Source of the DNA: Escherichia coli
GTDB taxonomy: Bacteria > Pseudomonadota > Gammaproteobacteria > Enterobacterales > Enterobacteriaceae
NCBI RefSeq assembly: GCF_024502345.1
Contig: NZ_JALDNN010000001.1
Strand: one strand, 5' to 3'
Length of the DNA: 64,000 nt
In this document: positions 22,916 to 25,272 of the stretch, piece after piece
How the letters are laid out: each line of letters starts with the position of its first letter
How positions within the stretch are numbered: the first letter of the stretch is position 1
Translations under genes and position numbers: made by a program
The notes under the pieces: model-generated
What the model was told of the DNA's origin: nothing
Database searches by the model: none
What the model saw: only the letters and a program-made list of their open reading frames with translations

Positions 22916-24322
22916 ATGAATAGCAGTAAATTATCAGTAAGAGAAAAGATCGGCTACGGGATGGGCGACGCAGGATGCAACATCATCTTTGGCGCTATCA
23001 TGCTGTTTGTTAACTATTTTTATACGGATATTTTTGGTCTGGCCCCGGCACTCGTTGGCGTATTACTGCTCTCTGTACGGGTTATCGATGCCGTCACTGA
23101 CCCTATTATGGGGGCCATTGCCGACCGCACCCAAAGCAAATATGGTCGTTTTCGCCCCTGGCTATTGTGGATTGCCTTCCCCTACGCGCTATTCAGCATC
23201 CTGATGTTTACCACGCCAGAATGGAGCTATAGCAGCAAGGTTATCTATGCCTTTGTTACCTATTTCCTGCTCTCCCTGACCTATACCGCCATTAACATTC
23301 CTTACTGCTCGTTAGGTGGCGTGATTACTAATGACCCACAAGAGCGCGTGGCCTGCCAGTCGTACCGTTTTGTGATGGTGGGCATCGCTACCCTTCTGCT
23401 CTCGCTGACGCTATTGCCGATGGTGGATCTATTTGGCGGCGGCGACAAAGCGAAAGGGTATCAGCTGGCTATGACCGTGCTGGCAATCATCGGTATGTGT
23501 ATGTTTTTGTTCTGTTTCGCCACGGTTCGTGAGCGCATTCGCCCGGCGGTACAAACCCATGACGACATGAAGAACGATTTTAAAGATGTCTGGAAAAACG
23601 ATCAGTGGGTGCGCATTCTGCTGCTCACCTTGTGCAACGTCTGCCCTGGATTTATCCGCATGGCGGCAACCATGTACTATGTCACCTGGGTAATGGGTGA
23701 GAGTACTCAGTTTGCAACCCTCTTTATTAGCCTCGGCGTTGTCGGAATGATGATCGGCAGTATGTTGGCGAAAGTGTTAACCGACCGCTGGTGCAAACTG
23801 AAAGTCTTTTTCTGGACCAACATCGCGCTGGCAATTTTCTCCTGCGCCTTTTATTTCTTTAATCCGCACGCCACGGTGATGATTGTGGTGCTCTACTTCC
23901 TGCTCAACATTCTGCACCAGATCCCCTCCCCGCTGCACTGGTCGCTGATGGCAGACGTCGACGACTACGGCGAATGGAAAACCGGTAAACGCATCACCGG
24001 CATCAGCTTCTCCGGTAACCTTTTCTTCCTCAAACTGGGCCTGGCCATTGCCGGGGCGATGGTGGGCTTTCTGCTCTCATGGTACGGCTACGATGCCGGT
24101 GCGAAAGCCCAAAGCGCCACGGCGATTAACGGTATTGTACTGCTCTTTACCGTCATTCCTGGGGTGGGCTATCTGATTACCGCAGGCGTCGTCCGCCTAC
24201 TGAAAGTAGACCGCGAACTGATGAAACGCATCCAGACCGATCTGGAAAAACGTCGCACCAATTACCGCGAACTGAATGACTATCAGGAAATAAACGCTGT
24301 AGAAACAGTAAGGAAAGCCTAA
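22916..24322 (+). CDS. GPH-family (glycoside-pentoside-hexuronide:cation symporter, MelB/YicJ-like) sugar transporter
   Basis: 468-aa hydrophobic ORF; N-terminal GYGMGDAGCNIIFG and DRTQSKYGRFRPWLL motifs typical of GPH family; GGGGAG RBS. Confidence 0.85.
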   Translation: MNSSKLSVREKIGYGMGDAGCNIIFGAIMLFVNYFYTDIFGLAPALVGVLLLSVRVIDAVTDPIMGAIADRTQSKYGRFRPWLLWIAFPYALFSILMFTTPEWSYSSKVIYAFVTYFLLSLTYTAINIPYCSLGGVITNDPQERVACQSYRFVMVGIATLLLSLTLLPMVDLFGGGDKAKGYQLAMTVLAIIGMCMFLFCFATVRERIRPAVQTHDDMKNDFKDVWKNDQWVRILLLTLCNVCPGFIRMAATMYYVTWVMGESTQFATLFISLGVVGMMIGSMLAKVLTDRWCKLKVFFWTNIALAIFSCAFYFFNPHATVMIVVLYFLLNILHQIPSPLHWSLMADVDDYGEWKTGKRITGISFSGNLFFLKLGLAIAGAMVGFLLSWYGYDAGAKAQSATAINGIVLLFTVIPGVGYLITAGVVRLLKVDRELMKRIQTDLEKRRTNYRELNDYQEINAVETVRKA

Positions 24323-25272
24323 TGCAAGACTGGCCGAATCCATTTATCGAGCAACGCGCCGATCCCTTTATACTGCGCGATGGCAACCACTATTATTTTA
24401 TCGCCTCGGTGCCGGAGTACGACCGGCTGGAAATTCGCCGGGCAGACTCGCTCGTCGGGCTGCGCAGCGCCACGCCTGTCGTGGTGTGGCGTAAACCGCA
24501 AAGCGGCCCCATGAGCGAACTTATCTGGGCGCCGGAGCTGCATCATATTGCAGGTCGGTGGTATATCTATTTTGCCGCCACCCATACTCAGGCGCTCGAC
24601 AAACTGGGGATGTTTCAGCACCGGATGTTTGCCCTTGAATGTTGTGATGCCGATCCGCTCAGCGGAACGTGGATTGAAAAAGGACAAGTTAAAACACCAT
24701 TTGATACTTTTGCCCTGGATGCCACCACTTTTCACCATCAGGGTAAACAGTGGTATTTGTGGGCGCAAAAAGCACCGGATATCGCCGGGAACTCCAATAT
24801 TTACCTGGCCGAAATGGAAAATCCGTGGACGATCAAAGGCGAGCCGGTGATGTTGAGCAAACCGGAGTATGACTGGGAATGTCGCGGATTCTGGGTCAAT
24901 GAAGGTCCGGCTGTCGTGATGCATGGCGAGCGGTTATTCATCAGCTACTCAGCCAGCGCTACCGACGAGAACTACTGCATGGGGTTATTGTGGATAGACA
25001 TCGACGCTGACCCGAGAGTGCCTGAGAACTGGCATAAATCGCCGCGTCCGGTCTTTTCGACCAGCTATGAAAATCGCCAGTATGGCCCCGGACATAACAG
25101 TTTTACCCAAACGCCCGAGGGTGAGGATGTGCTGGTCTACCACGCACGTAATTACACCGAAATAGAAGGCGATCCACTGTACGATCCTAATCGCCATACG
25201 CGCTTAAAATTGATTCGCTGGGATGAAAGTGGGATGCCTGACTTTGGCATCCCTCCTGCGGAGACTTACTGA
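24322..25272 (+). CDS. Glycoside hydrolase family 43 enzyme (putative beta-xylosidase / alpha-L-arabinofuranosidase)
   Basis: 316-aa ORF overlapping transporter stop (TAATG); GH43 five-bladed beta-propeller signatures (ADPF, WAPE, YYIYF). Confidence 0.8.
   Translation: MQDWPNPFIEQRADPFILRDGNHYYFIASVPEYDRLEIRRADSLVGLRSATPVVVWRKPQSGPMSELIWAPELHHIAGRWYIYFAATHTQALDKLGMFQHRMFALECCDADPLSGTWIEKGQVKTPFDTFALDATTFHHQGKQWYLWAQKAPDIAGNSNIYLAEMENPWTIKGEPVMLSKPEYDWECRGFWVNEGPAVVMHGERLFISYSASATDENYCMGLLWIDIDADPRVPENWHKSPRPVFSTSYENRQYGPGHNSFTQTPEGEDVLVYHARNYTEIEGDPLYDPNRHTRLKLIRWDESGMPDFGIPPAETY

Follow-up and report, generated by a model that had tools for sequence, protein, structure and literature searches.

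Two gene pairs of E. coli K-12, yicJ–yicI and yagG–yagH, have alpha-xylosides and beta-xylosides as their substrates. In Salmonella, araT–araU reportedly belong to the AraC regulon, with AraC binding at the locus; araT is, we assume, the transporter gene STM0149 and araU the hydrolase gene STM0148. A passage in one published source, after Stringer et al. 2014, lists araU/STM14_0177 as arabinose-induced (PMC8341724). STM0148 is required for the expansion of Salmonella in the gut that depends on dietary arabinose, which Ruddle et al. 2023 describe as liberated from polysaccharides, and only one arabinofuranosidase is predicted in S. Typhimurium (PMC10016319). In Pectobacterium versatile, OA04_38360–OA04_38370 encode a GPH:cation symporter and a GH43_26 enzyme among genes of arabinose transport and utilisation, and the Pectobacterium AraC-operator scan reported no site before them; a study of Lactobacillus brevis/Weissella enzymes is cited there for GH43_26 (PMC7843439). 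The solved structures 3AKF and 9NXG/9NXJ belong to GH43_26, a subfamily in which every characterized member is an alpha-1,5-arabinofuranosidase (PMC12493170).

We analysed a stretch of E. coli DNA of 64,000 nucleotides (the window) in which a module of two genes between aroP and ampE is the ortholog of the already described Salmonella STM0149–STM0148 system. It is very likely, in our judgement, that this module is an L-arabinose-regulon operon for arabinofuranoside scavenging, ancestral at its site, deleted in about 99% of E. coli, and recently spread by recombination.

The aroP–ampE interval and its carriers

The list of open reading frames in the window places a GPH:cation symporter gene (22916–24322, + strand, 468 aa) and a GH43 hydrolase gene (24322–25272, + strand, 316 aa) between aroP and ampE, which are convergent around the pair and were identified by family-model searches (AroP, 1025 bits against a cut-off of 848; AmpE, 419 bits against 238). 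The symporter gene has a Shine–Dalgarno sequence, GGGGAG (22902–22907, + strand), and its TAA stop codon and the ATG of the hydrolase gene have one base in common (TAATG); the compact operon of a symporter and an overlapping 316-aa GH43 gene given in the preliminary description is thus confirmed for both reading frames. BLAST comparison with the empty site delimits the module-specific DNA to 22791–25302 (2,512 bp), in place of which the empty allele has 10 bp (CAATAATCTT). To the left lies a terminator-like hairpin of aroP read from the sequence, CCCTCACCC-GTACA-GGGTGAGGG (22768–22790, + strand), which is the final stretch common to the empty E. coli allele, BLAST homology stopping at 22790. 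The right edge, 25302, is the first base, on the + strand, of the ampE stop-codon triplet; homology to the empty site restarts at 25303, and the stop codon of ampE is TAG in the occupied allele and TAA in empty alleles. Another hairpin, GCCCGG-N9-CCGGGC (25280–25300), lies between the stop codons of the convergent GH43 and ampE genes.

The 2.4-kb segment was found in 53 of 5,426 complete E. coli genomes (~1%), in single copy, on the chromosome, and at the same site each time. The carriers include TUM13936 and DSM 103246. In the other genomes aroP and ampE adjoin directly: in the empty strain 190 they are 42 bp apart, and every sampled match of the genome search showed the identical 199-bp match geometry at the empty site. 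The K-12 and B derivatives C600, XL1-Blue, and BL21(DE3) possess aroP and are not among the 53 carriers, which bears out the preliminary description of aroP and ampE as direct convergent neighbours in K-12; K-12 lacks the pair, and few E. coli carry it. An Hcp–HNH island on the other side of aroP is independent of the module, and linkage of the two was ruled out: the island is present in 1,058 genomes versus 53 for the module, and in one of eight sampled module carriers. Across the Enterobacteriaceae, the order aroP–GPH–GH43–ampE–ampD occurs in 79 of 80 species representatives, from genera including Citrobacter, Salmonella, Enterobacter, Klebsiella, Kluyvera, Raoultella, and Kosakonia, and it is kept in S. 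Typhimurium, S. arizonae, and S. diarizonae.

Carriers might have kept this ancestral locus vertically, as an old polymorphism or within one clade, with the same function and without recent transfer. The ancestral synteny and the single chromosomal site of all 53 copies agree with such retention, but an old polymorphism should be as divergent as its flanks, whereas among nine carriers with at least four flanking haplotypes nucleotide diversity (pi) is 0.0012–0.0016 in the module versus 0.006–0.013 in the flanks, so that diversity in the module is 4–10 times lower than in the core genes beside it. Also against it, the copy in Escherichia sp. E1V33, which is not E. coli, has 3 differences in 2,250 bp of the module, while its ampE and nadC differ by 6–8%; the corresponding dS values are 0.000 for the symporter gene, 0.025 for the GH43 gene, and 0.348 for ampE. 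We therefore regard vertical retention as improbable: the low diversity of the module and its near-identity to the E1V33 copy despite divergent flanks argue for recent movement by homologous recombination. Both genes are under purifying selection (dN/dS of 0.02–0.05 for the symporter and 0.04–0.07 for the hydrolase). As to the direction of this movement, we infer, tentatively, that a single allele introgressed from a non-coli Escherichia lineage, that of the E1V33 allele, into the ~1% of carriers after the species-level loss, and is now spreading through a diet-dependent gut colonisation advantage like that conferred by Salmonella STM0148; this more detailed scenario is possible and stops short of being probable.

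Predicted hydrolase, symporter, and promoter functions

The hydrolase consists of one full-length GH43 domain, the five-bladed beta-propeller of this family (Pfam PF04616; residues 5–306 aligned to model positions 2–288 of 288, E = 1.3e-79). Its top six PDB matches, which include 5M8B, 5M8E, 3K1U, 9NXG/9NXJ, and 3AKF, have E values from 1e-127 to 1e-104, and with the next match, 4QQS, E falls to 1e-15. Between them, 3AKF, 9NXG, and the other closely related structures fix the fold. We take 5M8B and 5M8E to be the enzymes of the L. brevis/Weissella study. In the alignment with 9NXG, residues D14, D133, and E194 of the hydrolase, in the motifs RADPF, LDAT, and NEGP, coincide with D168, D283, and E344 of AtAbf43C, the Asp base, Asp pKa modulator, and Glu acid, a triad verified in that enzyme by mutagenesis (PMC12493170). 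No signal peptide was found, the catalytic Asp being already at residue 14, and because signal peptide, CBM42, and dockerin are all lacking, the protein is predicted to be cytoplasmic. Its nearest solved homologs place the hydrolase with GH43 subfamily 26, and it is predicted to act by exo-hydrolysis on alpha-1,5-linked arabino-oligosaccharides, as an exo-alpha-1,5-L-arabinofuranosidase.

The symporter matches the GPH:cation symporter family model TIGR00792 (TC 2.A.2) with 425.3 bits against a cut-off of 231.35, over residues 11–446 (model positions 1–437), and its S. Typhimurium ortholog carries the Pfam domain PF13347 (MFS_2). It stays below the cut-offs of four equivalog models: scores and cut-offs were 492.7 versus 836 for NF008526, presumably the YicJ-like family, 481 versus 610 for YagG, 291 versus 528 for UidB, and 250 versus 456 for MelB. 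By these scores the symporter forms a distinct subfamily whose substrate does not follow from homology; it may transport arabino-oligosaccharides.

Upstream of the symporter gene, a simple sigma-70 consensus scan found no promoter, and the region has no good −35 element, which fits an activator-dependent promoter. The 124-bp upstream region aligned with the verified araBAD promoter with a score of 79, compared with 43.6 ± 5.3 (maximum 64) for 500 shuffles, and the CRP TCACA, I1, I2, and −10 elements follow in the araBAD order, their spacings agreeing to within 1 bp. The CRP-like site TGTTACCTGCCTCACA (22792–22807, + strand; consensus TGTGA-N6-TCACA) has its centre ~92 bp before the predicted transcription start and is aligned with the araBAD CRP half-site; of the 74 upstream regions of orthologs, at least 90% keep its pattern TGTTA.CT...TCACA. 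A predicted AraC half-site of araI1 type, AAGCGATTTTATCCATA (22820–22836, + strand), is identical to araI1 at 14 of 17 bases, a match that alone is modestly improbable (0.21 such matches are expected in the window, and two or more occurred in 2 of 100 shuffles), and its AGC and TCCATA blocks are kept family-wide; the araBAD alignment sets this half-site directly against araI1. A second araI1-like match in the window, at 59839–59855, was treated as chance, its TCCATA block being mismatched. The predicted promoter-proximal AraC half-site of araI2 type, CGGCGTTATCCTGCAAC (22841–22857, + strand), lies 21 bp from the I1-like site and reaches the −35 region; its similarity to araI2 in sequence is weak, its distances to I1 and the −10 match those in araBAD to within 1 bp, and its ATCCTGCAACGCA block is kept in at least 90% of the orthologs. 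The predicted −10 hexamer AATAAT (22879–22884) and a downstream CAT are equally kept in at least 90% of orthologs, and transcription probably starts near A22892 (feature 22879–22892, + strand). Across the 74 orthologous regions, the blocks are thus conserved at 90% or more while the spacers vary. Tandem AraC half-sites next to the −35 region with a CRP site upstream constitute, in silico, a promoter of araBAD type, and AraC and CRP would be expected to bind it in E. coli. A terminator-like hairpin at 22887–22906 was judged non-functional; it overlaps the predicted transcription start and the Shine–Dalgarno sequence. A regulator gene near the pair had been suggested as something to look for: the open reading frames between aroP and ampE include none, and what the locus has instead is the promoter with its araBAD-like CRP- and AraC-type sites. 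The LacI-type gene present in Kluyvera was ruled out as a local regulator, being part of an unrelated PTS insert.

The preliminary guess was a xyloside or arabinoside scavenging module; its arabinoside half stands, all close characterized solved homologs being alpha-1,5-arabinofuranosidases, and its xyloside half is disfavoured. Were the module one for xylosides or xylo-oligosaccharides, paralogous to the yagG–yagH or yicJ–yicI type and with a symporter for beta-xylosides and a GH43 beta-xylosidase, it would account for the name "GH43 family beta-xylosidase" that some sources give the protein, for the depositors' use of beta-xylosidase for 5M8B and 3K1U, and for NF008526 and the YagG family NF007237 being the best NCBIfam matches of the symporter. 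However, both of those matches are far under their cut-offs (493 versus 836 and 481 versus 610), 5M8E, a near-twin among the PDB matches, is named alpha-N-arabinofuranosidase, and the close relatives are in GH43_26, with its uniformly alpha-1,5-arabinofuranosidase members (PMC12493170). The promoter, moreover, is araBAD-like and not of the xyl type, the pair in Gallibacterium directly adjoins araC, araA, araD, and araB, and the phenotype of the Salmonella mutant depends on dietary arabinose, all of which makes a xyloside function very improbable.

Ancestry of the occupied site

The dS of the pair to each outgroup is about that of aroP, ampE, and ampD; import from another genus was ruled out on this ground, the congruence with the flanks marking the allele as of Escherichia type. 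The module segment has two open reading frames only and contains neither IS nor integrase nor tRNA; its edges, 22791 and 25302, were searched for direct and inverted repeats and have none; its GC content (0.48–0.55) is like that of the flanks, with no compositional anomaly; and a search of plasmids gave no E. coli-type copy, only Klebsiella copies of chromosomal type at 78.6% identity. An origin in a mobile element was ruled out accordingly. Family-wide synteny, flank-like dS, and the lack of mobile signatures together show that the occupied aroP–ampE interval is ancestral and was lost by deletion in most E. coli, K-12 included, so that the polarity of the "accessory insertion at a hotspot" proposed earlier is reversed. 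That a foreign island recently entered an integration hotspot beside aroP, whether carried by a mobile element or derived from a different genus, is extremely unlikely and largely refuted by the identical order and site in 79 of 80 species representatives and by the dS, composition, edge, and plasmid results above, even if the rarity of the module in E. coli (53 of 5,426), the second variable block across aroP (the Hcp–HNH island), and a Kluyvera insert of 3.4 kb between aroP and the symporter gene (LacI-type regulator, SIS-domain protein, and PTS transporter), which makes the neighbourhood variable, speak for it.

Under the preferred reading of an ancestral arabinose-regulon operon, other gut microbes would release short alpha-1,5-linked arabino-oligosaccharides from plant arabinan, which would cross the outer membrane and be imported by the GPH:cation symporter. 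The cytoplasmic GH43 subfamily-26 exo-enzyme would then shorten them from the non-reducing end, yielding L-arabinose that would enter the core araBAD route and, by way of AraC and cAMP–CRP, turn on the operon's own araBAD-type promoter. The lineage from which ~99% of E. coli descend probably lost both genes together with their promoter in a single 2.5-kb deletion. The ~1% of carriers have one near-identical allele, which lies on several flanking haplotypes and is shared with a non-coli Escherichia; they probably owe it to recent spread, with homologous recombination acting through the conserved flanking genes.

A cytoplasmic exo-enzyme would not release arabinose directly from polysaccharides; if the introgression reading is true and the enzyme is cytoplasmic, the arabinose "liberation" described for Salmonella would in fact consist in taking up oligosaccharides that other microbes had released and trimming them inside the cell. 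That a gene pair is missing in K-12 can easily be misread as an insertion elsewhere; here the K-12 state is the derived, deleted one. The generic annotations "GPH symporter" and "GH43 family protein" gain a specific, testable function and regulator, and about 1% of E. coli may be able to utilise oligosaccharides from arabinan, a capacity that has been shown to drive the expansion of Salmonella in the gut. The recombination-driven spread, if confirmed, would be a small example of a lost core function regained within a genus. The importance of these points is modest, and they hold no surprise for a specialist.

Comparison with known systems

Like the module, yicJ–yicI and yagG–yagH of E. coli K-12 each combine a GPH symporter with a cytoplasmic glycoside hydrolase, and they contain its nearest transporter families by NCBIfam; they are nevertheless paralogs and not orthologs, since the scores lie below the equivalog or subfamily cut-offs and since the families or subfamilies of their hydrolases and their substrates differ from those of the module. 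SaAraf43A (3AKF–3AKI), AtAbf43C (9NXG/9NXJ), and what are presumably the L. brevis/Weissella enzymes (5M8B/5M8E) align with the E. coli hydrolase over the full catalytic domain and share its Asp/Asp/Glu triad. The E. coli protein is a single domain, with no CBM42, signal peptide, or dockerin, and its predicted location in the cytoplasm is that of the lactic-acid-bacterial enzymes, whereas the Streptomyces and Acetivibrio enzymes are secreted. The araBAD promoter has its CRP half-site, I1, I2, and −10 in the same order and orientation as the module promoter, which differs in having no divergent araC adjoining, in the poor similarity of its I2-like site, and in a −10 hexamer, AATAAT, that is nearer to consensus than the TACTGT of araBAD.

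The operon of Pectobacterium versatile has the same two-gene architecture in a different family, the Pectobacteriaceae. Salmonella enterica STM0149–STM0148 occupies the same position as the module (pdhR–aroP–GPH–GH43–ampE–ampD), and the two proteins are of the same lengths in S. Typhimurium, 468 and 316 aa, with amino acid identities of 91.7% for the symporter and 87.7% for the hydrolase. From gene order, we infer which of the two locus tags belongs to which gene, and locus order and the single predicted arabinofuranosidase of S. Typhimurium point to the GH43 gene adjoining ampE as the ortholog of STM0148. The pair is core-like in Salmonella and most Enterobacteriaceae, compared with its presence in ~1% of complete E. 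coli genomes, and the Salmonella locus has the same conserved CRP- and AraC-like promoter blocks as the module.

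The gene pair and its products

Two same-strand open reading frames occupy the interval between aroP and ampE, precisely where the preliminary description placed them: a GPH:cation symporter gene (22916-24322, + strand, 468 aa) and a GH43 gene (24322-25272, + strand, 316 aa). They meet at a TAATG junction in which the TAA stop of the symporter gene and the ATG of the GH43 gene share one base, an overlap that indicates one transcription unit. The 468-aa protein passed the GPH:cation symporter model TIGR00792 (425 bits versus a curated threshold of 231) and fell short of the equivalog or subfamily cut-offs for YicJ-like NF008526, YagG, UidB, and MelB. 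The 316-aa protein consists of one full-length Pfam GH43 domain. The neighbors are aroP upstream (1025 bits versus 848) and, convergent with the pair, ampE downstream (419 bits versus 238). Public databases name the E. coli transporter "GPH:cation symporter" or "MFS transporter," the latter being its sole annotation in strain GPEC1446 (match H66), and the hydrolase "GH43 family protein" or "beta-xylosidase." Transporter length varies among E. coli genomes with the pair (carriers) by in-frame steps of 12 bp, in the C-terminal tail (24290-24322) and elsewhere in the gene: a tandem duplication (NAVE-NAVE) lengthens the protein to 472 aa in strain 2018-02-2CC and three genomes like it, and in FDAARGOS_944 the loss of 12 bp ahead of residue 400 shortens it to 464 aa.

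The nearest solved structures to the 316-aa protein, aligned over its full length with E values of 1e-127 to 1e-104, are 5M8B and 5M8E (presumably from Lactobacillus brevis and Weissella), 3K1U (which we take to be from Clostridium acetobutylicum), 9NXJ and 9NXG (AtAbf43C), and 3AKF (SaAraf43A). In the alignment with 9NXG, residues D14, D133, and E194 pair with D168, D283, and E344 of AtAbf43C, the triad required for its activity and equivalent to D20/D135/E196 of SaAraf43A (PMC12493170). AtAbf43C does not cleave arabinoxylan oligosaccharides (PMC12493170). Because the catalytic aspartate is residue 14, there is no room for a signal peptide and the enzyme is predicted to be cytoplasmic, which would explain the need for a dedicated importer. 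Both genes have dN/dS values of 0.02-0.07 across the family and are thus kept by selection.

Distribution and polarity of the aroP-ampE interval

The possibility that the pair is simply present in K-12 and all E. coli is contradicted by its distribution: with the 2.4-kb pair as megablast query, it was found in 53 of 5,426 complete E. coli genomes, each with one chromosomal copy of at least 99.4% identity. In nearly all remaining genomes matches were confined to ~200 bp of the flanks with the same geometry; in strain 190, for example, aroP and ampE lie 42 bp apart, and the K-12 and B derivatives C600, XL1-Blue, and BL21(DE3) contain aroP yet are not among the carriers, so that the K-12 gene order given in the preliminary description is correct. 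Comparison with the empty allele delimits the module-specific DNA to 22791-25302 (2,512 bp), in place of which empty alleles have the 10 bp CAATAATCTT. The right edge is the ampE stop codon, TAG in the window and TAA in empty alleles. In strain MB56 (match H69) the annotation places a transposase gene of ISSen4 (IS3 family) inside the module match, which is broken into two pieces, is ~1.2 kb longer, and covers two annotated transporters, a GPH:cation symporter and an MFS transporter; the transporter gene thus looks disrupted by ISSen4, which would be a second and independent way of losing the module.

The preliminary description had proposed the pair as an accessory insertion. Accessory it is within E. 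coli, but the word insertion does not survive comparison with other species. Relatives of the GH43 protein numbered 348 when bacterial species were scanned with one genome each, and the best 80 (81-100% amino acid identity) were examined. In 79 of these 80, the GPH gene precedes the GH43 gene and ampE-ampD follows directly, with aroP upstream wherever the available DNA extends far enough. The genera sharing this synteny include Citrobacter, Salmonella, Enterobacter, Klebsiella, Kluyvera, Raoultella, Kosakonia, and Leclercia, among others, and an S. Typhimurium contig reads aceE-pdhR-aroP-GPH(468)-GH43(316)-ampE-ampD-nadC. The pair and the genes around it (aroP, ampE, and ampD) show comparable synonymous divergence from each outgroup: dS from E. 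whittamii is 0.47-0.49 for the pair and 0.25-0.43 for flanking genes, and from other genera ~1.1-2.8 for all of them. The GC content of the module is that of its flanks; no repeats were found at its boundaries and no IS or integrase in its interval, and a plasmid search retrieved no E. coli-type copy. Family-wide synteny, flank-like dS, and the lack of mobile-element signs together indicate that an occupied interval is ancestral for the family and that K-12 has a deletion allele. Junction geometry is uniform, which suggests one deletion event.

The intergenic region 3' of aroP is a truly variable site in other genera. Kluyvera intermedia (locus L037, 763-4425) and, similarly, the species with loci L022, L027, L034, L039, L045, and L069 have ~3.4-3.9 kb of extra DNA separating aroP from the transporter gene; in L037 its products are a regulator of the LacI family, a SIS-domain (GlmS C-terminal-like) protein, and a beta-glucoside-type PTS IIBC transporter.

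Upstream of aroP, the window holds a further accessory block (18738-20806) encoding a 593-aa Hcp (TssD) protein with a fused C-terminal HNH nuclease toxin and then a 94-aa immunity protein, named "type VI secretion system tube protein TssD" and "bacteriocin immunity protein" in RefSeq. More orphan HNH/immunity pairs lie beyond it, and low-GC stretches lie nearby (~18000-19250 and 20500-21250). This block is found in 1,058 of the 5,426 genomes, often at three places per genome, and in only one of eight sampled carriers of the pair, the two accessory blocks thus occurring independently.

Recent exchange within Escherichia

Nine E. coli carriers (the window and eight fetched genomes), with at least four distinct flanking protein haplotypes, were compared. 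Pairwise diversity was 0.0014 in the promoter region, 0.0012 in the GPH gene, and 0.0016 in the GH43 gene, and rose to 0.0059 in ampE, 0.0078 in ampD, 0.0106 in nadC, 0.0128 in aroP, and 0.0131 in ppdD-hofB. The module copy of Escherichia sp. E1V33, the representative of a separate species, has 3 differences from the window across 22923-25172 (2,250 bp), whereas ampE differs by 8% and aroP by 3%; dS is 0.000 for GPH, 0.025 for GH43, and 0.348 for ampE. An old, vertically inherited polymorphism would not be expected to give such a contrast between module and flanks. These comparisons indicate that homologous recombination, acting through the conserved flanks, has recently moved one module allele between lineages; between E. 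coli and the non-coli lineage it may have moved either way. The one mildly new result here is the population pattern: ~99% of E. coli have lost a locus that is ancestral, and a single allele of it has lately been spreading by recombination.

The E1V33 locus (L002) is itself a mosaic relative to the window: an ampD stretch (26173-26922) has just 1-5 differences per 250 bp (dS 0.048), while the adjoining ampE (dS 0.348) and, on the far side, nadC are 6-8% diverged, pointing to more than one recombination tract across the region. The window aroP allele (21173-22757) is rare, with at least 99% identity in just 4 of 5,423 genomes, and the 250 bp upstream of aroP (21173-21422) show 53-56 differences both from E1V33 and from an E. 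coli strain with the empty site; this region looks like a recombination mosaic beside the Hcp island.

Predicted arabinose regulation and related systems

No regulator gene lies within the aroP-ampE interval; instead, there are CRP- and AraC-type candidate sites upstream, resembling those of araBAD. In the 124 bp that precede the transporter gene lie, in order, a CRP-like site, TGTTACCTGCCTCACA (22792-22807), resembling the consensus TGTGA-N6-TCACA; an araI1-like half-site, AAGCGATTTTATCCATA (22820-22836), matching at 14 of 17 bases, where 0.21 such matches are expected in the window; a second half-site position 21 bp downstream (22841-22857); and a predicted -10 hexamer, AATAAT (22879-22884), followed by CAT at the expected transcription start. 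The araBAD promoter sequence, 100% identical to that in the genomes, aligned locally with this region over ~100 nt with a score of 79, against 43.6 ± 5.3 (maximum 64) in 500 shuffles, and the CRP half-site, I1, I2, and -10 are in register with araBAD to within 1 bp. Among 74 aligned orthologous upstream regions, precisely these blocks are at least 90% conserved and the spacers vary. A plain sigma-70 consensus scan found no promoter upstream of the transporter gene, as expected of an activator-dependent promoter. One further araI1-like match with three mismatches, TATCATTTTTATCCTTC (59839-59855, - strand), in estimated AT-rich intergenic DNA, has two of them within the TCCATA block and is probably due to chance.

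We propose that arabino-oligosaccharides released by primary degraders would be imported by the symporter and cut down to L-arabinose by the cytoplasmic exo-arabinofuranosidase; L-arabinose would then enter the araBAD pathway and also induce the operon through AraC and cAMP-CRP. The sequence comparisons establish the gene identities, the triad, the conservation, the promoter architecture, and the distribution; the imported substrate, binding of AraC and CRP, the transcription start, and the phenotype in E. coli are predictions. Of the xyloside or arabinoside scavenging first suspected, the enzyme relatives and the araBAD-like promoter favor the arabinoside part, under putative AraC control, and not the xyloside part.

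Stringer et al., in 2014, reportedly gave the Salmonella pair the names araT-araU and placed it among the AraC targets that E. coli K-12 lacks. An independent context for arabinose regulation is provided by Gallibacterium (Pasteurellaceae), in which the pair is no longer between aroP and ampE but immediately adjoins araC, araA, araD, and araB; in G. salpingitidis (locus L079, 4594-11919), where it is downstream of mtlA-mtlD, amino acid identity is 87% for GPH and 81% for GH43, which suggests horizontal transfer from Enterobacteriaceae into an arabinose gene cluster. In Pectobacterium, the same operon of GPH and GH43_26 (the subfamily of exo-alpha-1,5-L-arabinofuranosidases) is found among arabinose-utilization genes (PMC7843439). 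One article lists "araU/STM14_0177" as arabinose induced, attributing this to Stringer et al. 2014 (PMC8341724). The only GH43 arabinofuranosidase predicted in S. Typhimurium, STM0148, was shown to be expressed in vivo and to confer a competitive advantage, which vanished when the diet lacked arabinose or free arabinose was added (Ruddle et al. 2023, PMC10016319). Since a cytoplasmic exo-enzyme could not attack polysaccharide in the lumen, this phenotype probably also depends on imported oligosaccharides. The E. coli system is the ortholog of this described and partly characterized Salmonella operon and is, to that extent, already known.
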